A DNA stretch of 27,058 nucleotides from Acidimicrobiia bacterium (GCA_009926705.1 RFOJ01000001.1:1-27058); one strand, 5' to 3'. Shown: positions 1 through 27,058, counted from the first letter of the stretch. The notes: generated by a model not told the origin, from the sequence alone. Program-made: numbers and translations.

Positions 1-1846
1 GGCAGTTGCCTTGGCCGTTCTCGTCGAGCTCTTCTGTCTTGCGGTGGTGGTGCTCAAACGTTTCGTCGAACGAGAGTCCACGCGTCGCCTCGGCGACCGA
101 GACCCGAAGTGAACCCATCGTGTCGACCACATCGGTGCCGTCGATGGCGAGACGAATCGGGTCGAGACCGTGCTGCTTGGCGACGGCTTCGAACATTCGT
201 TCACGCACCAGTCGGCAGGCTCCGTCGACGGCGCCGCCGCTCATCCACGTTTGTCGCGAAGCCGACGTGCTGCCTGCACTACCAATCGCCGTAGAGATTG
301 GCTCAAGCAGAACGGTGTCAACCCCAAGAACGGTCCGGGCAATCTGCTGTGCCAGAACGACGAAACCTTGTCCAACTTCGGCGGTTGCGAACTGAAGTGT
401 GGCGACGCCGTTTGCCAGGTGGCATCGAGCGGTGGCGTAGTCGTCAAAGCCTTCGGAGTACATCAAGTTCTTGATTGACACACCCCAACCGACACCGCGT
501 CGGATGTTCGACTTACGCGCCGTAAGACCCGAACCGCCGGGAATCTCGAGCGGGTCGGGGGACTCGGGCAGCGGTTCAGGCATTGGGATCGCGGCAGTTT
601 CGCGAATGCATCGTTCGACGGGCGCCACGCTCTCGACGACCTGGCCGGTGATGAGTTTGTCGCCGGTCCGCATGGCGTTCTTCAGGCGGATGTCAACCGG
701 AGAGATACCGCACGCGTCCGCGAGCTTGTCCATCTGCGACTCGTGGGCAAAGCACGCTTGCACGACGCCGAAACCGCGCATCGCGCCGCATGGCGGGTTA
801 TTCGTGCGTACGGCGTAGCCGTCGACCGTCGCGTTCTCACATTGATAGGGGCCTTGCACGTGGGTTACGGCATTGATGAGTACCGCGGAAGATGTTGAGG
901 CGTAGGCACCACCGTCGAGCACGAGTCTTGATTCAACTCGTCGCAAGGTGCCGTCTCGATCGGCATGGTGGCGCATGAAGATGGTTGCTGGATGCCGGTG
1001 AATGTGTCCGAAGAACGACTCCTCACGGCCGTACTGCATTTTGATTGGTCGTCGGGTGACGAGAGCGAGCAGACAACAATGCACCTGCAGGCTGATGTCT
1101 TCGCGGCCCCCGAATGCGCCGCCAACACCACCGAGCGTGAGACGTACCTTTTCCGGCTCGAGATTGAGGCACGCCGCAATCTGTTTTTGGTCTTCGTGTA
1201 ACCACTGCGTGGCGACGAACAGTTCGACGCCGTGTCCGTCGTCGTCGGGGAGCGCCAAGGCGGCTTCGAGACCGAGGAAGGCCTGGTCTTGCATACCGAT
1301 CTCGTACGTGCCTTCGACAACAACCTCACCGACGAGGTTCTGATCACCGCGCACGATGCGCTGGCGACGAATGACGTTTCCGTCTGGGTGGATCTTTGAC
1401 TGTGAAGGGTCAATCGCCTTCTCGGCATCAACAAGGGGAGTCAGCACTTCGTAGTCGACCTTGATGGCAGCCAAAGCACGACGGGCCGTCTCTGGATGGT
1501 CGGCGGCGACTGCGGCAACCGGTTCACCCGCGTAGCGCACGTAGTCACGCGCAAAGACCGGTTGGTCACTCGCGATGAGGCCGTACGTGAGCTTTCCTGG
1601 CACGTCATCCGCCGTGACGACCGCCGACACACCATTGATGGCGAGTGCCGCTGACGTATCGATGCGCAGGATGCGCGCGTAGGGGTGCGGGCTGCGAAGC
1701 GTTGCGCCCCACAGCATGTTGTCGGCCCAGGCATCGCTAGAAAATGCGAAACGTCCCTGCACTTTGGGAATGCCATCTGGGCGCAGGGCCGAAGTGCCAA
1801 GAGCACCCTGGCGAGTGCGAGTTGAGGTGTCGGTCTTCGTCGCCAT
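1..1846 (-). CDS. pucD: Xanthine dehydrogenase family molybdopterin-binding subunit (PucD-like), 3' end truncated by the window edge
   Basis: Absent from the ORF track because no stop falls inside the window. Manual translation of several segments from ATG 1846 stays in one frame: MATKTDT...RPDGIPKVQGRFAFSSD...LRSPHPYARI, GMQDQAFLGLE, GVGGAFGGREDISLQ, VRTNNPPCGAMRGFG, KNLMYSEGFDD, ending ...LDENGQGNC. The start sits just after the stop of the 2Fe-2S gene (TGAGATG). Confidence 0.9.
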   Translation of the reverse strand, partial: MATKTDTSTRTRQGALGTSALRPDGIPKVQGRFAFSSDAWADNMLWGATLRSPHPYARILRIDTSAALAINGVSAVVTADDVPGKLTYGLIASDQPVFARDYVRYAGEPVAAVAADHPETARRALAAIKVDYEVLTPLVDAEKAIDPSQSKIHPDGNVIRRQRIVRGDQNLVGEVVVEGTYEIGMQDQAFLGLEAALALPDDDGHGVELFVATQWLHEDQKQIAACLNLEPEKVRLTLGGVGGAFGGREDISLQVHCCLLALVTRRPIKMQYGREESFFGHIHRHPATIFMRHHADRDGTLRRVESRLVLDGGAYASTSSAVLINAVTHVQGPYQCENATVDGYAVRTNNPPCGAMRGFGVVQACFAHESQMDKLADACGISPVDIRLKNAMRTGDKLITGQVVESVAPVERCIRETAAIPMPEPLPESPDPLEIPGGSGLTARKSNIRRGVGWGVSIKNLMYSEGFDDYATARCHLANGVATLQFATAEVGQGFVVLAQQIARTVLGVDTVLLEPISTAIGSAGSTSASRQTWMSGGAVDGACRLVRERMFEAVAKQHGLDPIRLAIDGTDVVDTMGSLRVSVAEATRGLSFDETFEHHHRKTEELDENGQGNC

Positions 1847-1847
1847 C

Positions 1848-2342
1848 TCACGCACCACCCGAGATGTCTGCCGCGCGCGTATCACGCGCTTGTCGCACTG
1901 CTTCAAAGATGCGACCGTAGCCGGTGCAGCGACAGATATTGCCGCTGATGGCTTCTTTGATTTCAAGATCGCTCGGTGCTGGGTTGCGGTCGAGCAGATG
2001 GTGCACCGCGACGATGAGCCCTGGCGTACAGAAGCCGCACTGCACACCACCTGCGTTGACGAACGACTGCTGCACGTCGGTTGGCTCGCCGTCGCTCGCC
2101 AAACCTTCCACCGTGACGATGTCGGCTTCGACGGCGGTCGCCGCCATGACGAGACAGGAACAGACAGCTTCGCCGTCCATGATCACCGTGCACGACCCGC
2201 ACTCACCTTGCTCGCAGGCGCCCTTGGTGCCTGGGAGGCCGAGCCGCTCGCGCAGCACATAGAGCAGGCTTTCACCAGCCCACGCGTCCTGCACCTGGTG
2301 CTCCATGCCGTTCACGCGAAGCGTGTAGAACTCGTTGCTCAC
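1848..2342 (-). CDS. Xanthine dehydrogenase small [2Fe-2S] subunit (PucE/CoxS-like)
   Basis: Motifs GTKGACEQGECGSCTV...SC and QCGFCTPG...GNICRCTGY. The start is moved from the ORF-track 2645 to GTG 2342, which overlaps the upstream stop (GTGA); 164 aa. Confidence 0.92.
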   Translation of the reverse strand: MSNEFYTLRVNGMEHQVQDAWAGESLLYVLRERLGLPGTKGACEQGECGSCTVIMDGEAVCSCLVMAATAVEADIVTVEGLASDGEPTDVQQSFVNAGGVQCGFCTPGLIVAVHHLLDRNPAPSDLEIKEAISGNICRCTGYGRIFEAVRQARDTRAADISGGA

Positions 2343-3220
2343 TGTGGACCTCGCTTCGTTGTCGCAGTCGATTCGTAGGCGGCACGCAACAACAAGCGTT
2401 GCGCGAGCACAGAGATGGCGTGACGGCGATAGTCGGCTGTCGAACGATGGTCGTCGATTGGCGAACACTCGGCCGCAGCTCGTTGGCCGAATTCGCGAGC
2501 GAGGGTGTCGCTCACCTTCGGATTGCCGACGAGTGATGTCTGTGTCGCCAGCCAGGCTTCGGTTGCTCGTGCGCGTACCACGGTGGGGGCGACGGCTCCG
2601 AGTGCGATTCGCACCGTGCCCGCTCTCGCATCGTGCACCAAACATGCAGAAGCAGCGGAGATCACCATTGCGTTTCGAGTCCCGACCTTGGCGTAACCCT
2701 GGAAGCCCTGCACAATCGGAACACTGACGGCAACGATGAGCTCGTGCGGTTGTCTCGCGTTCCGCTTGACGCCAACCATGAAGTCGTGCACCGATACGTC
2801 GCGCGCTGCGGCACTTGAGCGGAGGTGAACGACCGCGTCGAGCGCACTGAGCACGGGCAGGCCGTCACCTGCGGGGGAGCATGTGCCGAGGTTGCCGCCA
2901 AGCGATCCAGCTGCACGTATCTGCGGTGAACCCACCGTTCGAGCCGCCTCGGCAAGTGCCGGCACGTAGTCGCGCAGCGGTGCGCGTTCCATCTCTGCAT
3001 AGGGGACTCCCGAGCCGATGCGGAGCATGCTCGTCTCGTCGTCGAGGTGCCAGCGGCGAAGCTCGGCCACGCGACGGAGCGAGACGACGTTCTCCACTTT
3101 CGTGCGATTGAAATTAACTTCGACCATCAAGTCAGTGCCGCCCTGGATGAGCCTTGCCTGCGGGTTCGCCGCCAGAGCAGAGAGCGCCTGCTCAATGCTC
3201 GTTGCGTTGACGACGGTCAT
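2339..3220 (-). CDS. Xanthine dehydrogenase FAD-binding subunit (PucC/CoxM-like)
   Basis: GGTDLMV, ARTVGSPQIRAAGSLGGNLGTCSPAGD, YAKVGTRNAMVIS and PIDDHRSTADYRRH motifs; directly upstream of the 2Fe-2S and Mo subunits. Confidence 0.92.
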   Translation of the reverse strand: MTVVNATSIEQALSALAANPQARLIQGGTDLMVEVNFNRTKVENVVSLRRVAELRRWHLDDETSMLRIGSGVPYAEMERAPLRDYVPALAEAARTVGSPQIRAAGSLGGNLGTCSPAGDGLPVLSALDAVVHLRSSAAARDVSVHDFMVGVKRNARQPHELIVAVSVPIVQGFQGYAKVGTRNAMVISAASACLVHDARAGTVRIALGAVAPTVVRARATEAWLATQTSLVGNPKVSDTLAREFGQRAAAECSPIDDHRSTADYRRHAISVLAQRLLLRAAYESTATTKRGPQ

Positions 3221-3230
3221 GCGTAGATGC

Positions 3231-4274
3231 TCACAGGACGGGTTTCCAGTCTGCGAATGCGTCGATCATTGCCCGAACGTCACCGAGCGGGTAGAGGATC
3301 GGGCAGGTCGCGCCATTGCGCATGTAGTGCGCCACTTGCTCGCGGGCGTCGGCCGGCGTTCCGCTCGCGGTGAGCATCTGCACGATCTCGTCGGGCACGT
3401 GCTTGGACGCGGCGACTACTTGTTCGTGGGTTGCCGGCCATGTGAGCACGCTGCCTACCTTGTCGAGGAGCGATTGGGGTACGCCCGATGCCTTCATGAT
3501 GTGCGGTTGTTGACCGAGATACTGCGTGACCATGAGACGAGCCATGTCGAGGGCCGTCTTGCGGTCTTCGTGCACGCTGCAGACCACGAGTTGCGGCCGG
3601 TCGATCGAATCCATCGAGCGGTTCTTCTTTGCGGCACCGGCACCCAGTGCTTCGATGGCTTTGGCGTTGTACTCAGGTGAGACGAGGTAGTTCAAGACGA
3701 CGCCATCGGCGATTTCGCCAGTGAGTTCCATCATCTGCATTCCGGTGGCACCGATGTAGATCGGCACGTCTTTTGGCCGGCGCTCTTGGTAGACGTAGTC
3801 AAGTTCAACACCGTCGAGCTTCACGAACTCGCCATTCATCGTGACGTTCTCGTTGTTCAAGAGAGCTCGCACGGCAGTGACAATCTCGCGCATGGCGCGC
3901 AAGGGCTTGGCGCGATCAATGCCGACTTTCTTGGCCAACGGATCCCACCATGCACCGATACCAAGCAGAACGCGTCCCGGCGCGAGGTCGTCCAGAGTGC
4001 TGAACGTAGCTGCGAGGCGGGCGGGGTTGCGGCTCCAGCAGTCCACGACACCCGAGCCGACCTTCAACGTCTCAGTCACCGAAGCGAACGCTGCCATTGG
4101 CACCGTTGCTTCGCGCACGAGTCGACTCTCGGCCTGCCAAACAGCTTCAAATCCGCGCTGCTCGGCATATTTTGCAAATTCCATTCCTTCGCGGATGCGA
4201 TGCGCATCCTGCAAGTAGAGCGCGACTCGGGCGGTGCCCTTCGAAGTGAACGGGGTGAAGGTGGGCGTTGTCAC
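3231..4274 (-). CDS. LLM-class oxidoreductase, Mer (methylene-H4MPT reductase)-like, probably F420-dependent
   Basis: LLM TIM-barrel motifs [57 protein letters not shown] and SGTP; by eye it follows Mer along its full length. Start GTG 4274 has GGAG upstream and overlaps the ssnA-like stop (ATGTGA); 347 aa. Confidence 0.85.
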
Positions 4275-5380
4275 ATGTTCTCCAGTCGTTGATGCAACTT
4301 TCGGGCTGCTTCGCGTGCCTTGGCGCGAGTCTCCGCTTCGTCGACGAGTAGCGAAGTGCCATGGTCGACAATCACTCGACCGCCGGCAACGACTCGCTCG
4401 ACACGCATGCCCGTAGTGAAAGCGCCGTGCCACGGCGAGTTGGCTTCGGGATAGCGCCAGGTGACGACATCGTCTCGCGACTCGGGGAATGCCTCTCGAG
4501 CGTTTTGCATCCATCCCGCGACCACGTCTGGTGTGGCAGCTAGGTCAAATTCACGCAGCCGCGCGTAAGCGAGACGTGACTCTTCGGCCATGTCGCTACC
4601 GATGCCGTCAGAACCAAGCAACACTTTGTTGGGCTTCGTGGTCGGCTTGGCATACCCGACACCGTTGTTCATGTTCGAGCGGGGGTTGTGCGCGATGCGG
4701 CCACGAAGAGGTCGATCGAGATGCACAGTGTGCACGAGCAACCAATCGTCGGCGGCGTGTTTCTCCAGCCGTGCGCCCGCAGCAACGTCGTCAATTGCTT
4801 CGGCAACGTGCACATGCACACCTACGCCATGCTTCTTGGCGAGCGCGGCCGCGGCCTCGATTGTCTCATCAGAGCACGTGAAGGCAGCATGCAAGCCGAC
4901 CATCCCGCGCTTTCCAGCACTGAGGTGACGATCGCACTCATCCAAGCCGGCCATGGCCCCCTTGGTCATGCGTGAGATCGGCGACACCTTTTCGTGCAGT
5001 GATCCGTCGTCAGCCCAGCGGTCGGTGGCCCCGTAGCAAGCATTCACGCGCACACCGACTTCGCTGCAGGCCTTGTCGATTGCTTCGAGCGAGCCTTCGA
5101 TTGCTCGCGGTGACTCGTGATGGTCGATGATGCACGTCGTGCCAGCGAGCGCAGCCTCGAGGGCGCCGAGCTTGGCTGACCAGTAAATAGTTTCGAGATC
5201 GAGGGCTGCATCGAGCCGCCACCACACAAGCGAGAGCATGTCGGGGAAGTTTCTCGGACTCCGACTTGGACCAGGCATGCCGCGCGCAAGAGCCGAATAG
5301 AGGTGATGGTGCGCGTTGACGAGCCCAGGTGTAGTGCTCAGCACCGGTGAGGATGCGGCACTGGCAGTGGTGGCGGTCAT
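4271..5380 (-). CDS. ssnA: SsnA-like metal-dependent amidohydrolase, N-terminally shortened
   Basis: [65 protein letters not shown] and [10 protein letters not shown] parallel E. coli SsnA as recalled (HNHFYSGLSRG, WWRLDRALD, HNARSNMNNHVGY, LGTDGIGSDM). Start ATG 5380; 369 aa. Confidence 0.82.
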
Positions 5381-5390
5381 CGTGATCGGA

Positions 5391-8000
5391 TCAGTCTTCT
5401 TCGGAGTTGCCGCGACGCATTGGTAGGTGGGTGCGCCACACGCCGTCGAGTTCGTGCAGAGCCTTTGCGACCGCGCCAGCAGTCGGCACAAGCCCGATTT
5501 CGCCGACACCCTTGATGCCGTACGGCGCATTCGGTTGCGGCGATTCGACGAGCATCACCTTCATCGGCGGTACGTCCTTGGCGCGCAAGATGCCGAGTGA
5601 GCGAAGCGTCATATTGGTGGGGAAGCCCGTCTCCGGATCGGCGGGAAAGTCTTCTGACAAGGCGTAGCCGAGACCCATGTGAATGCTGCCCTCTATTTGC
5701 CCTTCACACAGCGTGGGGTTCACGGCACGGCCGACGTCGTGTGCTGCAACAACGCGCTCGATTTTGCCCGTCTCACGATCAATCACCACCAATTGGGTGG
5801 CGTAACCGAATGTCGAGTGGATGATTGGGTTGGTTACCCCAGGATCGCCCAACTTGGTCGTCCAGTCGACGCGGTATTCACCGACATGGTCGATACCGCG
5901 GGTGAGACCTGCTTCGAGTGCTGTTCGGCAAGCGTCTTGCACCGCTCCAGCACCCATGAGCGTGCCGCGCGAGCCGGTTGTCTGACCCAGTCCAAGTTCC
6001 CTGGTCGTGTCAACGACCACTCGCACACGACGCTCGTCGTCGTCGATGGCGAGATGTTGACCGAGTTCTTCGATTGCCACTTGCATCGCCACGGTGTTGA
6101 TGCCTTGGCCCATCTCCGTCCAGCCGTGGCGCACTTCGAGCGAGCCGTCGTCTTCGATTCGCACGACTGCCCGCGTGACTTCTTTGAAGCCGTTACCGAG
6201 CCCGCTGTTCTTCAATCCGAGACCGAGACCGACTGCCTTTCCGGCTTTCTTCGCCTCGTCGTAATGCGGTTTGATCGCTTCGAGACAAGCGAGTGCACCG
6301 TTGCAACCGTCGTCCATCAACTGACCAGGGCCCCACACCATGCCTGGTTGGATGACGTTGCGTCGGCGAATCTCCCACGAGTCGATACCAGCAAGTTCGG
6401 CAAGGCGGTCGAGCATGCCTTCCATCGCGAACTGTGCCTGGTTGGCGCCGAAACCGCGGAATGCGCCACCGACTGGGTTGTTGGTACGAACGGCGATGGA
6501 TTCGACGTCGATGGAAGGCAAGTGGTACGGCCCGCTCGCATGGCCGGCCATTCGTTCGAGCACCTTCATGCCGACACTGGCGTACGCGCCCGAATCGCCC
6601 ACGGCACGCACGCGCAGGGCAGTGAGCTTTCCGTTTTCGTCACAGCCCATCTCATAACTCATGCGAATCGGATGCCGCTTGGCATGCATGAGGAGGCTTT
6701 CTTCACGCGACAAGACGCACTTGACGGGAGCGTCGAGCAACCACGCCGCAAGCGAAGCGTGAGCTTGGTTCGACATGTCTTCTTTTCCACCGAACGCACC
6801 GCCGTTGGTGATGAGTTCGACCGTCACGCGGTCGTTGGCAAGACCGAGCACTCGGGCGATGTCGTTGCGGTCGTCCCACACACCTTGACCGCCGGAGTAC
6901 ACATGTAGGCGTCGCGTCTCACCGCTCCCGGAGGGCACGGCGAGCGTTGCTTCAGGTTCCAGGAATGCATGCTCAATTCGTTGCGTCTGGAAGGTTTCTC
7001 GCACGACGTGCTTGCTGGAAGCGAGTGCAGCATCGACATCACCACGCTGATACGTGCTGGTGCTGAGCACATTGTCTTTGGTCTGCCATACGGCAACTTC
7101 GCTGGTGGAAAGAGCGACGTCGACGTCGGTGATCGGCGTGTGCACCTCGTAGTCAACCTCGACAAGCCCAGCCGCCGCCCTCGCTTGTGCGCGCGACTCG
7201 GCGACCACGATGGCGAGCACATCACCGGCATACGACGTGCGGCCGCCGACTGGAATCATGACCGGCCAGTCTTTGTAAATGATGCCGACCATCAACTCGC
7301 CCGGGATGTCAGACGCTGTGTAGACGGCACGAACGCCCTCCGCCGCTCGTGCGGCGTCGGTGCGAATGGCCTTGATACCCGCCCGAGCGTGCGCAGTGAG
7401 ATGCAGTGCGGCATGCAGCATGCCGGGCACGCGCATGTCGTCGATGTATCCGCGGTCACCGAGAGCGAGCGCTTCAGCTTCGTGCTTTACAGTTCGCGAG
7501 CCGACTCCGCCGGCCGCGGCGAGTGGAGGTATTTCATTCTTTGCGACGCATTCGATCGCGTCGAGAATTTTTGCGTAACCCGTGCAACGACACAAGTGGG
7601 CTCCAAGGTGGCGGGCCATGTCTTCTCGCTTGAGGGCTGCACCCTTCTTGTCGATCTGCGCCTTGGCGCGAACGACGATGCCGGGGATACAAAAGCCACA
7701 TTGCAGACCCCCGCATGCTGCGAACGCCTGCGAGAACTTGGCGCGCTCTTCTTCGGAAACTCCCTCGAGTGTTGTGATCTGCGCGCCTGACGCTTTCTCA
7801 AGGCTCGTCTGGCACGAGACGACTGCCTTTCCGTTCACCAGAACGGTGCAACATCCGCACTGACCAGAAGGTGAGCAGCCATCTTTCGGAGATGTGATGT
7901 TCAGTTCTTCGCGCAATGCCGACAACAGATGCGGATGCGGTTGCCGAACGACGACGGGTACGCCGTTCACGACGAACTCAGTGGCTGCCCCCGCGCTCAC
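5391..8000 (-). CDS. Fused [2Fe-2S] + molybdopterin-binding hydroxylase, selenium-dependent xanthine dehydrogenase type
   Basis: N-terminal KDGCSPSGQCGCCTV and QCGFCIPG...HLCRCTGY. Mo-domain motifs TQRIEHAFLEPE, GGAFGGKED, GGAFRGFG, GMGQG, TTGSRG, AAHDVGRAVNP..CEGQIEG and KGVGE (catalytic Glu). The 869-aa fused layout and the LKNSGLG motif match clostridial Se-dependent Xdh as recalled. GTG start. Confidence 0.85.
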   Translation of the reverse strand: MSAGAATEFVVNGVPVVVRQPHPHLLSALREELNITSPKDGCSPSGQCGCCTVLVNGKAVVSCQTSLEKASGAQITTLEGVSEEERAKFSQAFAACGGLQCGFCIPGIVVRAKAQIDKKGAALKREDMARHLGAHLCRCTGYAKILDAIECVAKNEIPPLAAAGGVGSRTVKHEAEALALGDRGYIDDMRVPGMLHAALHLTAHARAGIKAIRTDAARAAEGVRAVYTASDIPGELMVGIIYKDWPVMIPVGGRTSYAGDVLAIVVAESRAQARAAAGLVEVDYEVHTPITDVDVALSTSEVAVWQTKDNVLSTSTYQRGDVDAALASSKHVVRETFQTQRIEHAFLEPEATLAVPSGSGETRRLHVYSGGQGVWDDRNDIARVLGLANDRVTVELITNGGAFGGKEDMSNQAHASLAAWLLDAPVKCVLSREESLLMHAKRHPIRMSYEMGCDENGKLTALRVRAVGDSGAYASVGMKVLERMAGHASGPYHLPSIDVESIAVRTNNPVGGAFRGFGANQAQFAMEGMLDRLAELAGIDSWEIRRRNVIQPGMVWGPGQLMDDGCNGALACLEAIKPHYDEAKKAGKAVGLGLGLKNSGLGNGFKEVTRAVVRIEDDGSLEVRHGWTEMGQGINTVAMQVAIEELGQHLAIDDDERRVRVVVDTTRELGLGQTTGSRGTLMGAGAVQDACRTALEAGLTRGIDHVGEYRVDWTTKLGDPGVTNPIIHSTFGYATQLVVIDRETGKIERVVAAHDVGRAVNPTLCEGQIEGSIHMGLGYALSEDFPADPETGFPTNMTLRSLGILRAKDVPPMKVMLVESPQPNAPYGIKGVGEIGLVPTAGAVAKALHELDGVWRTHLPMRRGNSEED

Positions 8001-8156: not shown

Positions 8157-9119
8157 CTAGAGCGGGCTGCCGTCGGCGCGGGTGTTGGCCCCGCGCTGGG
8201 TGGTGAGCCGGCGATACACCTCGGGTCGTCGGTAGTAATCCAGATCGAACAGGGTGTTCTGGTAGTTCTTGCACCACTCGAGGTCGCATTCAGCGACCAC
8301 AACTTCGTCGCCCGCACTCACCGTCTTAGCGAGGATTTCCCCAGACGGGGCGATGATCTGCGATTCAGCAAGCGAGTCAACGCCTTCTTCGACACCACCC
8401 TTGGCGACACCGACGACGAACGTGCCGTTCTGATACGCGCCCGACTGCATGACGAGCGAATTGTGGAATCCGGCGTGGCGATCCTGGCTCGGGTCGGGGA
8501 TGTAGTTGAGCGGCGTGTTGTAGCCGCAGAGAATGAGTTCGACGCCTTGCAAGCCCATCTCGCGGTACGTCTCAGGCCATCGGCGATCGTTGCAGATCAT
8601 CATGCCGATGCGACCGCCGAACGCGTTCCACACACCGAATCCCTCATCGCTTGGTTCGAAGTAGTAGCGCTCAGCATGTTGGAAAGGGCGATTGGGTTCG
8701 TTTGACGCGTGACCCGGAATGTGCACCTTGCGGTACTTGGCGACGATGGCGCCGTCGCGCTCGACCAGCACTTGCGTGTTAAAGCGGTGTCCGTCAGCAG
8801 TGAGCTCGGCGTATCCGAGACTGAAGCCCACCTTGCGCTGCTTGGCTGCATCGAACAGCGGCTGGGTGGCAGGGGACGGCATTGAGGTTTCGTAGTAGTG
8901 GTCGGCGGTCGCGATGTCGTCGACGAACCACCGCGGGAAGAACGTCGTCAATGCAAGTTCCGGAAACACGACGAGCTGGGCACTTTGGTCGGCTGCTCGA
9001 TGCAACAGTGCGACGAGACGAGCGACCGCCGATTCTCGGCTGTCGGTTCGTTGGATCGGCCCCATCTGTGCAGCAGCGACGCGCACGACTCGAGGCGTTC
9101 CGCGCAATGCGCCTTTCAT
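8157..9119 (-). CDS. N-carbamoyl-D-amino acid hydrolase (DCase-like, nitrilase superfamily)
   Basis: VFPELALTTFFPRW (Glu), YRKVHIPGH (Lys), ICNDRRWPE (Cys), RPFQH..RYFEP and MQSGAYQNG closely match Agrobacterium-type DCase as recalled; GAGG RBS upstream. Confidence 0.9.
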   Translation of the reverse strand: MKGALRGTPRVVRVAAAQMGPIQRTDSRESAVARLVALLHRAADQSAQLVVFPELALTTFFPRWFVDDIATADHYYETSMPSPATQPLFDAAKQRKVGFSLGYAELTADGHRFNTQVLVERDGAIVAKYRKVHIPGHASNEPNRPFQHAERYYFEPSDEGFGVWNAFGGRIGMMICNDRRWPETYREMGLQGVELILCGYNTPLNYIPDPSQDRHAGFHNSLVMQSGAYQNGTFVVGVAKGGVEEGVDSLAESQIIAPSGEILAKTVSAGDEVVVAECDLEWCKNYQNTLFDLDYYRRPEVYRRLTTQRGANTRADGSPL

Positions 9120-9159: not shown

Positions 9160-10407
9160 TCACGAGAACGACATTTCTGCAAGCTCTCGCATCGTGTCAA
9201 GTAGCACGTCTGCGCCAGCGACGAGATCTGCTTCATCAGTGTGTTCGGCCACGTTGTGGCTGAGACCCTTGTGACTCGGTACGAAGATCATCGCCGTCGG
9301 GCACATGCGGGCGATCATCTGAGCATCGTGACCCGCACCGGAGGGCATTCGCTGCACGGTGTTGCCTCGTGCTGCTGCGAGACGCTCAACCATCGAAACA
9401 ACACGTTCGTCGAACACGACGGGCTCGAAGCGGGCGAGGCTACGACGCGTGATAGCGACATTCTCGCGCTCGGCAAGTTCGCTGCAGAAGGCGTCGATCT
9501 CGGCCTCCGCTCGCTGCAAGACGAGCTCGTCGGTGTTCCGCACGTCGAGCGTGAGCACCGCCCGGCTCGGCACGACGTTGGTGAGATTCGGATGCAAGTC
9601 GACCTTTCCGACGGTGCAGACCTGATGCCCGCCGAAACGTCCGGCGAGTTCGCGTACGAAGACGGTGAGAGCAGCCGCGGCGTACGCCGGATCGCGCCGC
9701 AGGTGCATCGGGGTGGTGCCGGCGTGGTTGCTCTGGCCTTGGATAGTGACTTCTTGCCATGAGATGCCCTGAACGCCGGTGACGGCACCGATTCGCACGC
9801 CGTTGACTTCGAGGAGCGGACCCTGTTCGATGTGCAACTCGACGAACGCGTGGGGTGCAGCACCAGGGCAGGGCATTGCCCCCAGGTATCCAATTCGTTC
9901 GAGCTCGTCCCCGAGACGTGCACCGTCGATCGCGATGACGTCATGAGCTTCTTCGACCGACATGCCACCCGCGTACACCAGAGAGCCGAGCATGTCGGGA
10001 GCGAATCGTGCGCCTTCTTCGTCGGTGAAGACGCCGACTGCGAGCGGGCGCGAGGGCTCAATCCCGGCATCTTGCATCGTCTCGATGACTTCGAGGCCAG
10101 CCAACACGCCGTAGTTGCCGTCGTACTTGCCTCCGGTGCGAACCGTGTCGATGTGCGATCCGGTCATGACTGGCGCACCGCTGCCGACATTCCAGGTGCC
10201 GATCATGTTGCCGACGGCATCGACGGTGACGACGAGCCCGAGGTCGACCATCCACGAACGAACGAGGTCGCGACCATCTCGGTCAGCGTCGGTGAGTGCC
10301 AGTCGGTTGCATCCACCACCGTCGATGGCACCGACCTCGGCCAGCGCCATGATGCGCTGCATCAGTCGCACACCGTTGACGGAGAGCGCTTGGGTCGTCG
10401 AGCGCAC
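9160..10407 (-). CDS. M20 Zn-dependent N-carbamoyl-L-amino acid amidohydrolase / beta-ureidopropionase / allantoate amidohydrolase family
   Basis: GSHIDTV..GGKYDGNYGV, FTDEEGARF, ELHIEQGP, NHAGTTPM and SGAGHDAQ motifs; GTG start preceded by TAGAAT plus 6 nt. Confidence 0.92.
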   Translation of the reverse strand: MRSTTQALSVNGVRLMQRIMALAEVGAIDGGGCNRLALTDADRDGRDLVRSWMVDLGLVVTVDAVGNMIGTWNVGSGAPVMTGSHIDTVRTGGKYDGNYGVLAGLEVIETMQDAGIEPSRPLAVGVFTDEEGARFAPDMLGSLVYAGGMSVEEAHDVIAIDGARLGDELERIGYLGAMPCPGAAPHAFVELHIEQGPLLEVNGVRIGAVTGVQGISWQEVTIQGQSNHAGTTPMHLRRDPAYAAAALTVFVRELAGRFGGHQVCTVGKVDLHPNLTNVVPSRAVLTLDVRNTDELVLQRAEAEIDAFCSELAERENVAITRRSLARFEPVVFDERVVSMVERLAAARGNTVQRMPSGAGHDAQMIARMCPTAMIFVPSHKGLSHNVAEHTDEADLVAGADVLLDTMRELAEMSFS

Positions 10408-10419: not shown

Positions 10420-10441
10420 CGAATGGCAGTATTGAACCTTG

Positions 10442-11791
10442 ATGCGTCACGTTGACCGAGCTCGATTGGCCGAGCTGATGAAGAGCGAGACGCAACGCTT
10501 CGTCGACACCCACCCGAAATCTGCAGCGCATGCGCAGACTGCCGGCGCGCTCGTCGGTGGCGTACCGATGCCGTGGATGCGCCGTTGGCCCGGACCGTTC
10601 CCACTCGTTCTCGAGCAAGCCAGCGGGGCACGGTTCACCGATATCGACGGTCACGAATACGTCGACCTCTGCCTCGGCGATACGGGCGCAATGACGGGTC
10701 ACGCACACCGCGAGGTCGGCGAAGCGGTGAGTCGCCAGCTCTCACGCGGTGCGACCGTGATGCTTCCGACGCAGGATGCCGTGTGGGTCGCCAACGAGAT
10801 GCAGCGGCGCTTCAGTCTTCCAAAGTGGCAGTTTGCGCTGAGCGCCACGGATGCGAATCGTTTCGTGTTGCGATTCGCGCGCGCCATCACTGGCAAGCCA
10901 AAGGTGCTCGTGCACGACTGGTGCTACCACGGCACCGTCGACGAGACCCTCGTCGTTGCCCTCGGTGACCGGACGATTAGTCGCAGCGGCGCAATCGGTC
11001 CGCAGGTGAACCCAGCGTTGACCACCCGCGTGGTGCAGTTCAACGACGTTGAGGGCATCGAGCACGCGCTTGCACACGGTGACGTCGCCTGCATGCTCAT
11101 CGAACCTGCACTCACGAACATTGGCATTGTGCTTCCTGAGCCCGGCTACCTGGCGGCCGTTCGCGAAATCACCCGCAAGCATGGCGTGTTGCTCATTATC
11201 GACGAGACGCACACGATCTGCGCCGGCCCGGGCGGATGTACGAAGGAGTGGGGTTTGGAACCCGACATGTTCGTCATTGGCAAGACCATCGGCGGGGGAA
11301 TCCCCGTCGGGGCCTACGGCATGTCGGCCGAAGTCGGAGAAAAGGTCGAGCAACTGCAATTGAGCGATGGCATCGATGTGTCAGGAGTTGGCGGCACACT
11401 GGCCGGTAACGCACTCTCGATGGCGGCTGTGCGAGCGACACTCACTCACGCACTGCTGCCCGAACAGTTCGTGCGTACCAAGGCTCTCGCAACAGCGTGG
11501 ACCGCCGGCGTGAAAGACGCGTACGAGCGACGCGACTTGGCATGGAGCGTCCAACAACTCGGGTCGCGAGCCGAGTACTGGTTCTGCCCACCGCCGCGCA
11601 CCGGTGCCGACGCAGCCGCTGCCGTCGACCACGACCTTGACGCATTCATGCACTTGTGGGCGATCAACCGCGGCGTGCTGCTCACACCGTTTCACAACAT
11701 GGCGCTCTTCTCGCCGTTCCACGATCAGTCCGACGTCGACCGTCACACTGAGCAGTTCGATGCCGCCCTCACGGCGCTCGTCGGCGCCTGA
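10442..11791 (+). CDS. Class III PLP-dependent aminotransferase (GSA-aminomutase-like fold, probably not HemL)
   Basis: ASGARFTDIDGHEYVD, CYHGTVDE, LLIIDETHT and PDMFVIGKTIGGGIPVGAYG (PLP Lys), GGTLAGN. Start ATG 10442 or TTG 10439. Confidence 0.88.
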   Translation: MRHVDRARLAELMKSETQRFVDTHPKSAAHAQTAGALVGGVPMPWMRRWPGPFPLVLEQASGARFTDIDGHEYVDLCLGDTGAMTGHAHREVGEAVSRQLSRGATVMLPTQDAVWVANEMQRRFSLPKWQFALSATDANRFVLRFARAITGKPKVLVHDWCYHGTVDETLVVALGDRTISRSGAIGPQVNPALTTRVVQFNDVEGIEHALAHGDVACMLIEPALTNIGIVLPEPGYLAAVREITRKHGVLLIIDETHTICAGPGGCTKEWGLEPDMFVIGKTIGGGIPVGAYGMSAEVGEKVEQLQLSDGIDVSGVGGTLAGNALSMAAVRATLTHALLPEQFVRTKALATAWTAGVKDAYERRDLAWSVQQLGSRAEYWFCPPPRTGADAAAAVDHDLDAFMHLWAINRGVLLTPFHNMALFSPFHDQSDVDRHTEQFDAALTALVGA

Positions 11792-25101: not shown

Positions 25102-26181
25102 CTAATCGAGCACTTCGTAACGGCGGGTGGCGATGAGCCAGCCTGCCTGGGTGCGCTCATAGCGATCGTGCAAGACCGCTATTCGTGACCCCAATGACCC
25201 GTTCCGGCGCTGAAATCGCTCGGTGACGGTGATTCGACCAGTGGCGCTGCCTGCGGTCTCGTCAACCCGCAACACCACGATTTCCGGGCTCTGGAGTGTC
25301 CAACGATCCGGGGAGAAGTGCTTGGCGAACAATCCGGTCAATTCTTCAGCACCCTTCCCACTCGAACCGTCGGGCAACTGCAGCTGCGCGTTTGTCGTCC
25401 ACTGCGCCAGCCAGGTGACTTGGTCACCGCGCAACTGGGCGTCGGCAACTGCGGCAATCACATGGCGCAACGCTGCGTCGGTGATGGCGGTTGGTGCGTC
25501 GCCGGCGGGAACCGCAGTTGATGCCGTGGAAGCACCAGTAGCCGCACGCACGGCGGGTTTTACCGACCGTCGACCATCGCGAATGTCGTCGGGCGACAAG
25601 CCTGTTTCGAATGCTGCCGACGCACGCAGGGTGCGCATCAATTCTTTGCGCTTCACCACGCCTTCGTGCGCCGCGAACTGCACGGCAAGACCATCAATCA
25701 GCGCCGTGAGTCGCATGGCCGAGATGCGCGGCTGTTCGCAGTGGAACTCACCCGTTTCGTTCCCGCGGCGCAACACTCGTTCGAGAAAGCCAATCGACTG
25801 CTCGTCGAGCTGCTGACTGATGCTCTTCATAAGGGGATTGCGCAATGCCTCGCCCCATGCGTCGATCCAGAGCATCCACTCGACGTCGTCGCTACCCTCC
25901 GGCACGTAGCTCTCGATGAGGCGCCACAGTTGTGCGGTTGCTGACTGGCCGAGCTCGATGTCGCGTTCCATCTCGGCGAGATCTTTTCTCGCGTAGTACT
26001 CGAACGCGGCCGCCAGCAACGCTTCTTTGCTGTCGAAGTGGTAGTGGATGAGGCTGTTGGACACCCCAAGACGTTTGGCGACATCCGCCACACGCGTGCC
26101 GGCGAAACCGCGTTCGATGACCACTTCGCAAGTGGCTTCAAGGATCTCAACCCGCCGGGCCTCAACCGCGTACTTTTTCAC
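25102..26181 (-). CDS. TetR/AcrR (BetI-like) regulator fused to a C-terminal SnoaL/NTF2-like domain
   Basis: HTH RRVEILEAT...GFAGTRVADVAKRLGVSNSLIHYHFDSKEALL; BetI-like ligand domain (WMLWIDAWGEALRNP, LTALIDGLAVQ); Ala/Thr linker; NTF2-like end (ATGRITVTE...LHDRYERTQAGWLIATRRY). Start GTG 26181; 359 aa. Confidence 0.88.
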   Translation of the reverse strand: MKKYAVEARRVEILEATCEVVIERGFAGTRVADVAKRLGVSNSLIHYHFDSKEALLAAAFEYYARKDLAEMERDIELGQSATAQLWRLIESYVPEGSDDVEWMLWIDAWGEALRNPLMKSISQQLDEQSIGFLERVLRRGNETGEFHCEQPRISAMRLTALIDGLAVQFAAHEGVVKRKELMRTLRASAAFETGLSPDDIRDGRRSVKPAVRAATGASTASTAVPAGDAPTAITDAALRHVIAAVADAQLRGDQVTWLAQWTTNAQLQLPDGSSGKGAEELTGLFAKHFSPDRWTLQSPEIVVLRVDETAGSATGRITVTERFQRRNGSLGSRIAVLHDRYERTQAGWLIATRRYEVLD

Positions 26182-26187
26182 GACGAG

Positions 26188-26213
26188 ACAATAGTTCTGC
26201 CGCTGCCTAGCGT
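26188..26213. promoter_or_regulatory. Divergent -10 pair: TATTGT (minus, 26188-26193) and TAGCGT (plus, 26208-26213)
   Basis: Each lies exactly 6 nt from a GTG start (26181 and 26220). Confidence 0.6.
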
Positions 26214-26219
26214 GATGCC

Positions 26220-27058
26220 GTGAACGTGACGACGACCGACTCGGCACACGTCGACGGCGGACGACGCTCGGCTCGCAGGCTCTCACTTCGGCGGTACCGC
26301 GTCATCGTCTGGGTCGCTTTCGTCTCGCTCTACGTCATCATCGTGACGGGCTCGTTGGTGCGCCTCACCGGCTCCGGGCTCGGCTGCATCGACTGGCCTG
26401 CCTGCAATGAGGAGCAGTTCGTCGACGTCTCGACGCCCCATGCCGCCATCGAGCAATTGAACCGCCTCTTCACGGGAGTGGTCGCCGCAAGTGTCATCGC
26501 TGCCGTGTTGGCTGCGCTCTTCGTGCGGCCTCGTCAACCTCGGCTCGTGCGGCTGGCGCTCTGGCTCGTGGCTGGTGTACTGGCGCAAGTGGTGCTCGGC
26601 GGCATCGTCGTGCTGACTGGCCTGCACCCGCTCAGCAACATGGGACACTTCTTACTTTCCGTCGCACTCATGGTCGGTGCATACCTACTCGTCGATGCGG
26701 TGTCGTCCGAAGGCCAACGCGAAGCGCGCGAGCTGGCTGCCGAGGCTGGGGCCCGCAGCTCGGGCAGACAGCGAACCACCGATCTCACGTGGTGGCAACT
26801 GCGCGGTGGCCCCGTTGTCGTGCTCACCCTCGCTGCCATCATCACCGGCACTGTGGTGACGGGCACTGGTCCTCATGCGGGCGACGAGACCGCGCCGCGA
26901 TTCGACTTCATGATCACCTCGGTCGTTCGCGTACACGGAGTGGCCGTCTGGCTCGTGGTCATGGCGTCGTTGTGGCTTGGTTTCAGACTGTGGCGCAAAG
27001 GCGCCGACCAGCGCGTGCAGCGAGGGTTCGAATGGTTCCTCTTTGCCGCCATCGCACA
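26220..27058 (+). CDS. ctaA: Heme A synthase (COX15/CtaA), 3' end truncated by the window edge
   Basis: Absent from the ORF track (no stop inside the window). Manual translation from GTG 26220: VTGSLVRLTGSGLGCIDWPAC, AAIEQLNRLFTG, QVVLGGIVVLTGLHP...GHFLLS, TGTGPHAGD, RVHG. Confidence 0.9.
   Translation, partial: MNVTTTDSAHVDGGRRSARRLSLRRYRVIVWVAFVSLYVIIVTGSLVRLTGSGLGCIDWPACNEEQFVDVSTPHAAIEQLNRLFTGVVAASVIAAVLAALFVRPRQPRLVRLALWLVAGVLAQVVLGGIVVLTGLHPLSNMGHFLLSVALMVGAYLLVDAVSSEGQREARELAAEAGARSSGRQRTTDLTWWQLRGGPVVVLTLAAIITGTVVTGTGPHAGDETAPRFDFMITSVVRVHGVAVWLVVMASLWLGFRLWRKGADQRVQRGFEWFLFAAIA

Follow-up and report, generated by a model that had tools for sequence, protein, structure and literature searches.

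A 27,058-nucleotide stretch of DNA from an Acidimicrobiia bacterium (GCA_009926705.1 RFOJ01000001.1:1-27058), which we call the window, carries eight closely packed minus-strand genes whose products resemble the enzymes of reductive purine degradation. The fifth of them, at positions 3231 to 4274, encodes a Mer-like protein of the luciferase-like monooxygenase (LLM) family. Comparative evidence suggests to us, with a probability of about 0.7, that this protein reduces 2,8-dioxopurine with F420H2 and so does the work of YgfK, to which it is not homologous. Read along the minus strand, the operon is made of the following genes:

9160..10407, minus strand: M20 hydantoinase/carbamoylase-family amidase, the first operon gene (TIGR01879 397.8 bits and NF006771 419.8 bits, over cut-off)
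8157..9119, minus strand: carbon-nitrogen hydrolase, carbamoylase-like, of the same operon (PF00795 164.8 bits)
5391..8000, minus strand: fused 2Fe-2S and molybdopterin enzyme of the 'selenium-dependent XDH' type, DOPDH/XdhD-like (TIGR03311 826.6 bits, cut-off 830.45)
4271..5380, minus strand: SsnA-like amidohydrolase, 369 amino acids (aa) from the ATG at 5380 (NF005540 231 bits and TIGR03314 222 bits, both under cut-off)
3231..4274, minus strand: Mer-like LLM gene (protein P0001), 347 aa, GTG start 4274-4272, TGA stop 3233-3231 (translation, PF00296 and AF2 model)
2339..3220, minus strand: FAD-binding subunit, XdhB/YgfM-like, starting 10 nucleotides past the LLM stop (PF00941 and PF03450; NF043083 180 bits)
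1848..2342, minus strand: 2Fe-2S subunit, PucE/XdhC-like, its start overlapping the FAD-subunit stop (TIGR03198 160 bits)
2..1846, minus strand: PucD-like molybdopterin subunit of a conventional xanthine dehydrogenase, ATG at 1846, running off the window (TIGR03196 650.9 bits)

The same gene order is found on a relative's 133-kb contig, where unrelated genes lie beyond the PucD-like gene.

The reference for this operon is the pathway of E. coli and C. sporogenes, described in 2025, in which XDH forms urate, XdhD/DOPDH strips off the 6-oxo group to give 2,8-dioxopurine, YgfK/DOPOR reduces this compound and SsnA then opens the ring (PMC12507026; bioRxiv 10.1101/2025.04.24.650524). The early steps of this pathway all have counterparts in the window except the reductase, and the LLM protein fills the reductase slot. 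The fused DOPDH/XdhD-like enzyme is predicted to convert urate to 2,8-dioxopurine, and the SsnA-like amidohydrolase is predicted to hydrolyse the reduced purine ring.

The LLM gene directly follows the SsnA-like gene and overlaps it. A preliminary description of this DNA had seen the overlap in the hexamer ATGTGA and had set the LLM start at 4274; overlap and coordinate are both correct, with GTG in place of ATG as the start codon. Around 4276-4271 the sequence of the minus strand is AAC ATG TGA C; the SsnA-like gene ends there with the sense codon ATG (4276-4274) and the stop TGA (4273-4271). Since the LLM frame opens at GTG 4274-4272, the overlap is of the GTGA type. There is no other in-frame ATG, GTG or TTG between 4274 and the codon for Leu21, a residue already within strand beta-1, and for some orthologues the alignment to the LLM protein begins at residue 1. 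The upstream neighbour had also been named correctly as SsnA-like, though its 231 bits against NF005540 fall under the curated cut-off of 444. This SsnA-like protein is short: it opens almost at the HxH metal motif and covers profile positions 58-349 of 444 only.

What kind of LLM is encoded here? The protein scores 222.4 bits with the Pfam profile PF00296, over profile positions 16-313 of 314. Its best 15 NCBIfam matches are all F420-LLM families, with Mer first (NF002619 175.6 bits; TIGR03555 164.7), whereas the FMN families, SsuD included, reach at most 49 bits (SsuD families 45) and RutA is absent among the 25 matches listed (lowest listed 33 bits). A family profile built from 23 members ranked the structures of the PDB in the same way: six Mer structures at 189-245 bits, the F420 enzymes FGD1, Adf and FGD2 at 93-114, and FMN enzymes at no more than 79 (SsuD 72). 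The AF2 model of the protein (pLDDT 93.4) has (beta/alpha)8 secondary structure, and its best Foldseek match is jMer, 8qpl (TM 0.84/0.88). In the Foldseek ranking the Mer structures (TM 0.82-0.89, rmsd 2.4-3.0) are followed by F420 dehydrogenases (0.72-0.81) and then by FMN LLMs, with rmsd 5-7. The three approaches thus agree with the earlier, tentative assignment of the protein to the F420 type rather than the FMN type. F420 LLMs form one clade, divided into reductases and dehydrogenases (PMC6279831), and by similarity the LLM protein falls on the reductase side. A tree gave the orthologue clade a support of 99/99 with deeper nodes unresolved; the characterised enzymes are not in it, and it is silent on F420 versus FMN.

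Motifs point the same way. Residues 172-195 match the strand-5/strand-6 region of M. barkeri Mer (PDB 1z69) almost letter for letter, so that the Mer-like motif of the preliminary description is indeed present. In jMer, a non-prolyl cis-peptide, Gly61-Val62, backs the F420 ring; Glu6 is the catalytic acid, and Asp96 and Phe233 contact the pterin (PMC11094777). Two of these positions map onto the gene as follows:

4047..4052, minus strand: Gly75-Val76 codons, aligned to jMer Gly61-Val62 (profile alignment to 8qpl)
4215..4217, minus strand: Tyr20 codon, at the position of the Mer catalytic acid Glu6 (profile alignment)

Gly75-Val76 is invariant in 78 orthologues, as a sequence motif from which the cis conformation is not read. 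Asn195 is conserved among the orthologues, which keeps the carboxamide found at jMer chain position 178. Residue 178 itself is given as Gln in PMC11094777 and as Asn in the 8qpl chain as printed (DGVLINAS). Another link to F420 comes from the nearest out-group subfamily (46-48% identity), which is encoded in F420 biosynthesis operons with the order Fno-like, CofE, CofD, CofC, then LLM. By its similarities, the LLM protein belongs to the Mer-like reductases among the F420-dependent LLMs and is a soluble enzyme with a TIM barrel; F420 is presumably the cofactor it actually uses.

The likeness to Mer has clear limits. In sequence, profile and fold alike, nothing matches the LLM protein better than Mer (8qpl, 1z69): barrel and helical subdomain, the Gly-Val cis-peptide motif and the strand motifs (G-A-x-G...AGEIADG...N) are shared, and Mer moves a hydride from F420H2 onto the carbon of a C=N bond, as is predicted for the LLM protein. 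Yet the two are only 26-28% identical, and Mer belongs to a C1 pathway, the LLM gene to a purine operon. The profile alignment replaces jMer Glu6, Asp96 and Phe233 by Tyr20, Trp110 and Gln251, all three invariant in the orthologues (Tyr20 in 77 of 78 rows, with one gap). The Mer cut-offs are missed by a wide margin (NF002619 175.6 vs 276; TIGR03555 164.7 vs 348.7), and among ten scanned representatives 31-35% identical to the LLM protein none exceeds a Mer cut-off. With the catalytic Glu6 and the pterin contacts missing, the LLM protein is not Mer.

Where do its relatives occur? A genome search from an 8-sequence alignment found relatives encoded at at least 576 loci, the best 80 at 68-91% identity, and all returned loci are from Acidimicrobiia. 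For 63 orthologue loci, 4 kb or more of upstream sequence was available. SsnA is encoded within 10 kb of the LLM gene in 49 of them and an XdhD-like gene in 52; at 56 loci at least one of the two is present, and this linkage holds through several rearrangements. One of these is instructive: in genus g5 (L123/L124 of G103; L125/L126 of G034) the operon is split, with an xdhD-LLM pair at one locus and, at a second, the M20, CN hydrolase, SsnA, FAD-subunit, PucE and PucD genes, which is the order of the window minus xdhD and LLM. The genes for presumed consecutive steps thus move together. River metatranscriptome contigs (95-99% identity) span the SsnA/LLM and LLM/FAD-subunit junctions; they carry no strand information, and DNA carry-over is possible. 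An 884-aa protein (P0225), considered as a candidate SsnA-LLM fusion, was dropped because it has no Pfam match at all.

The main new indication of function comes from the distribution of the LLM gene and of YgfK in 201 genomes of the class. LLM orthologues, called at 514 bits or more (the next best match is at 365), are present in 29 genomes, SsnA in 60 and the YgfK N-terminal domain in 34. Divided by the presence of SsnA, the counts are:

60 genomes with SsnA: LLM only, 26; YgfK-type only, 31; both, 3; neither, 0
141 genomes without SsnA: LLM only, 0; YgfK-type only, 0; both, 0; neither, 141

This complementarity of LLM and YgfK within one class is evidence new to our analysis. The two proteins also share a position. 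In nine LLM-less genomes the ssnA flanks were annotated, and in eight of them YgfK follows ssnA directly, either full-length (896-908 bits, cut-off 835) or in a short form of 616-663 aa with the YgfK N-domain and a 4Fe-4S dicluster. At the ninth (L109), an adenosine deaminase gene stands between ssnA and a Fer4-bearing frame, which was not scored against YgfK. Both types occur inside a single genus, g6, with one LLM-type and one YgfK-type genome. In the genome of the window, which is 64% complete, YgfK was not found. Complementary distribution and shared position after ssnA back, by comparison, the YgfK-like role that the preliminary description had given to the LLM protein. The short YgfK (L101, L102, L103, L106, L110), found in many Acidimicrobiia, covers TIGR03315 positions ~5-415 and lacks the GltD-like NAD(P)H module.

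To explain these results we propose the following scheme. The conventional xanthine dehydrogenase (PucD/PucE/FAD subunit) would form urate, and the fused DOPDH/XdhD-like molybdenum enzyme would take off its 6-oxo group to give 2,8-dioxopurine (isoxanthine). The LLM protein would then take F420H2, regenerated by Fno from NADPH, as co-substrate and pass a hydride from the deazaflavin C5 to the pyrimidine ring of the purine, most simply to C6 of N1=C6, so that the ring would be dearomatised. The translationally coupled SsnA-like amidohydrolase would hydrolyse the unstable reduced ring and so pull an otherwise unfavourable reduction forward, and two carbamoylases would remove the ureido groups. 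Of this scheme, the substrate is inferred by analogy with YgfK, and inference likewise supplies the ring atom that accepts the hydride and the link to SsnA.

The putative reductase would be a very different machine from its analogues. Like the YgfK/DOPOR of E. coli and C. sporogenes it is encoded next to ssnA and presumably catalyses the same reaction, but the two are not homologous: YgfK has ~1000 aa, Fe-S clusters, a flavin and a GltD-like NAD(P)H module, whereas the LLM protein has 347 aa and no metal centre, and its hydride would come from free F420H2. UacX, the PydA-like FMN/Fe-S reductase of the C. difficile uricolytic cluster, is likewise a non-orthologous replacement of YgfK at the same step; it has a DHO-dehydrogenase fold, is presumed to be ferredoxin-linked and is unrelated to the LLM fold.

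The preliminary description knew of no F420-dependent purine reduction step, and here it has to be corrected: one was predicted by Li et al. in 2025 (Life Metab 4(6):loaf031, PMC12507026), who proposed an F420-dependent luciferase-family isoxanthine (yanthine) reductase for the SsnA clusters of Chloroflexota. Their proposal takes two sentences and is drawn from a 15-gene neighbourhood network, for Chloroflexota only and without tests (PMC12507026). The likeness is close, with a PF00296 gene near ssnA and an xdhD/xdhA homologue, YgfK and UacX lacking, and the same proposed role; the present LLM differs in coming from Acidimicrobiia (Actinomycetota) of the aerobic freshwater plankton. The two were compared by family and neighbourhood, as accessions are not in the text of PMC12507026. 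One near cluster in the Atlas is commonest in Chloroflexota, an LLM 42% identical and linked to SsnA is of unknown taxon, and the deep nodes of the tree are unresolved. Among the papers searched, none besides Li et al. links F420 with dioxopurine. As a prediction the idea has been published before; what the present work adds is corroboration and a well-defined test candidate, and we claim no discovery.

Can the host make F420? The genome of the window is a 1.17-Mb metagenome-assembled genome. It encodes CofE (250.8 bits), a fused CofG+CofH (FbiC) in an 834-aa frame, CofC (144.4 bits), a CofD split over two contig ends and Fno (176.3 bits). The preliminary description had suggested looking for genes of F420 biosynthesis and for fgd, and the former are present. 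Of the 201 genomes of the class, 173 have CofH over its cut-off, among them 26 of the 29 LLM carriers; all 29 have CofH, or at least CofD and CofE, so that no carrier without F420 biosynthesis genes was encountered. Database labels place the relatives in Ilumatobacteraceae, Acidimicrobiales or acIV, and their sources are lakes, rivers and sea water. Aerobic respiration is indicated by the gene for a heme A synthase (CtaA) in the window.

A number of points weigh against our proposal. The evidence is comparative throughout, the LLM clade has no curated NCBIfam model of its own, and all 31 NCBIfam matches of the LLM protein are under curated cut-offs. The structure of the YgfK product was assigned only provisionally in the 2025 pathway work. 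At seven loci and in genus g5 the LLM gene lies with xdhD and apart from ssnA. FGD was not found in the genome of the window, at its 64% completeness, and three LLM carriers (G051; G095, closed, 3.3 Mb; G131) have no CofH match at E<=1e-80; these three keep CofD and CofE over cut-offs and may scavenge FO or use a divergent FO synthase. F420 genes are near-universal in the class, so that their co-occurrence with the LLM gene discriminates little. As to the complementarity, related genomes in the sample are not independent, and YgfK was counted by its N-terminal catalytic domain with 3 candidates scored per genome, so that some YgfK may be missed. In the three genomes with both proteins SsnA adjoins YgfK, and the LLM copy, the most divergent (68-72% identity), stands alone; being apart from the pathway genes, that copy may do something else.

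Could the enzyme act on another ring? The best of the alternatives, which we nevertheless consider unlikely, is an F420-dependent reductase or dehydrogenase of the same operon that uses another heterocycle (urate, xanthine, 8-oxopurine or the SsnA product), maybe in the oxidative direction and making F420H2. In its favour, the identity of the substrate rests on the YgfK analogy only, with the product structure provisional as noted, and sister LLM subfamilies stand beside a variety of cyclic amidohydrolases:

42% identity to P0001, on an unrelated contig: neighbours SsnA-like gene, 3-subunit Xdh, D-hydantoinase and M20 amidase
44% identity to P0001: neighbour dihydropyrimidinase, start/stop-coupled
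50% identity to P0001: neighbour TRZ/ATZ-type amidohydrolase
47% identity to P0001: neighbour allantoinase-like enzyme

A heteroaromatic ring that is reduced and then hydrolysed is the recurring design, and the differing amidohydrolases indicate that the substrate range of the clade is broad. But the 42%-identical LLM beside an SsnA-like gene favours our main reading, the complementarity of LLM and YgfK and their shared place after ssnA point specifically to the YgfK step, and enzymes of the Mer-like reductase branch consume F420H2 and do not produce it (following the split of PMC6279831).

The genome of the window itself offers a hint of the same design for pyrimidines. Its contig C3 (L099, 273-4314 onward) encodes a dihydropyrimidinase (547 bits), methylmalonate-semialdehyde dehydrogenase (MMSDH, 717 bits) and, over cut-off at 593 bits, a TIGR03842 LLM; ABC transporter genes and the gene of a PRK06062 aminotransferase come next. 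The cluster resembles a pathway of reductive pyrimidine breakdown in which an F420 LLM takes the place expected for PydA, and we found no paper on such a cluster. Like the Mer-like protein, the TIGR03842 (F420_CPS_4043) enzyme is an F420-class LLM beside a cyclic amidohydrolase in a nucleobase-catabolic cluster; it differs in belonging to a distant subfamily on a long tree branch and in its pyrimidine-type context with MMSDH and an aminotransferase, and it is likewise uncharacterised. We envision, tentatively and at less than even odds, that the Mer-like LLM clade may consist of general F420H2-dependent reductases of nucleobase and other heterocyclic rings, each with its own cyclic amidohydrolase (SsnA, dihydropyrimidinase, TRZ/ATZ), and that the reductive purine route of aerobic planktonic Actinomycetota would then be Fe-S-free and O2-tolerant. 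If so, reductive urate degradation would not be confined to guts and would be widespread in oxic fresh and sea water.

The pairing of LLM with xdhD invites a second alternative, in which the LLM protein reduces no ring and passes the reducing equivalents of F420H2 to the DOPDH/XdhD-like molybdenum enzyme for the dehydroxylation of urate. The two-gene xdhD-LLM module, away from ssnA and from the FAD subunit in genus g5 and at L038-type loci, speaks for it. However, F420 is an obligate two-electron hydride carrier and the LLM protein has no Fe-S or other one-electron centre. Electron feed would also leave the genomes that carry SsnA and lack YgfK without a ring reductase, and consecutive pathway steps explain the xdhD-LLM pairing equally well. 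All in all we find this alternative improbable.

That the gene encodes a RutA/SsuD-like monooxygenase, which would use FMN and O2 to cleave or hydroxylate a purine or pyrimidine ring, appears more improbable still. PF00296 is common to both types, the host is aerobic (CtaA in the window) and the NCBI labels the relatives 'LLM class flavin-dependent oxidoreductase'; but the FMN families fall far below Mer in the HMM and profile scores given above and are structurally more distant, the Gly-Val bulge of the F420 type is conserved, and Pfam and NCBIfam scans found no gene for a flavin reductase partner in the operon. Finally, a true Mer (a methylenetetrahydromethanopterin or methylenetetrahydrofolate reductase) in the operon by chance has next to no likelihood, although no other family matches better by HMM, PDB and fold and JGI annotates the relatives as 5,10-methylenetetrahydromethanopterin reductase, since the scores lie far under the Mer cut-offs, the three key residues are replaced and the linkage to ssnA and xdhD is kept through many rearrangements.

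If the LLM protein is a 2,8-dioxopurine reductase, it would catalyse the first F420-dependent step in purine catabolism and provide, after YgfK and UacX, a third structurally unrelated way to dearomatise 2,8-dioxopurine. The reductive urate pathway would then operate in very abundant aerobic Acidimicrobiia of fresh water and the sea, which bears on the recycling of dissolved purine nitrogen. Being small and Fe-S-free, the LLM protein would make the biochemistry and structure of this step, the product of which is only provisionally assigned, easier to approach, and it could become a part for engineered urate-degrading strains.

The surroundings of these genes offer some minor observations. In the F420-operon sister subfamily (L116 9002-12269; L098 1891-4356) the LLM gene is start/stop-coupled to a following gene for an 818-821-aa protein without Pfam match, and at L116 an XdhC/CoxI-type cofactor-insertion gene comes next. 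The operon has no HyuA-type hydantoinase; contig C3 encodes the one strong match in the genome. One gene is kept beside the operon in close relatives:

10439-11791, divergent from the operon: class III aminotransferase (PRK07046 633 bits, over cut-off)

This aminotransferase might handle diaminopropionate instead of YgeX. The TIGR03311-type 'selenium-dependent XDH' (5391-8000) is encoded in a presumed aerobe with COX15/CtaA (26220-27056). A 394-aa frame at 25102-26286 encodes a TetR regulator with TetR_N and a BetI-type C-terminal domain; ~170 of its C-terminal residues are without Pfam match.

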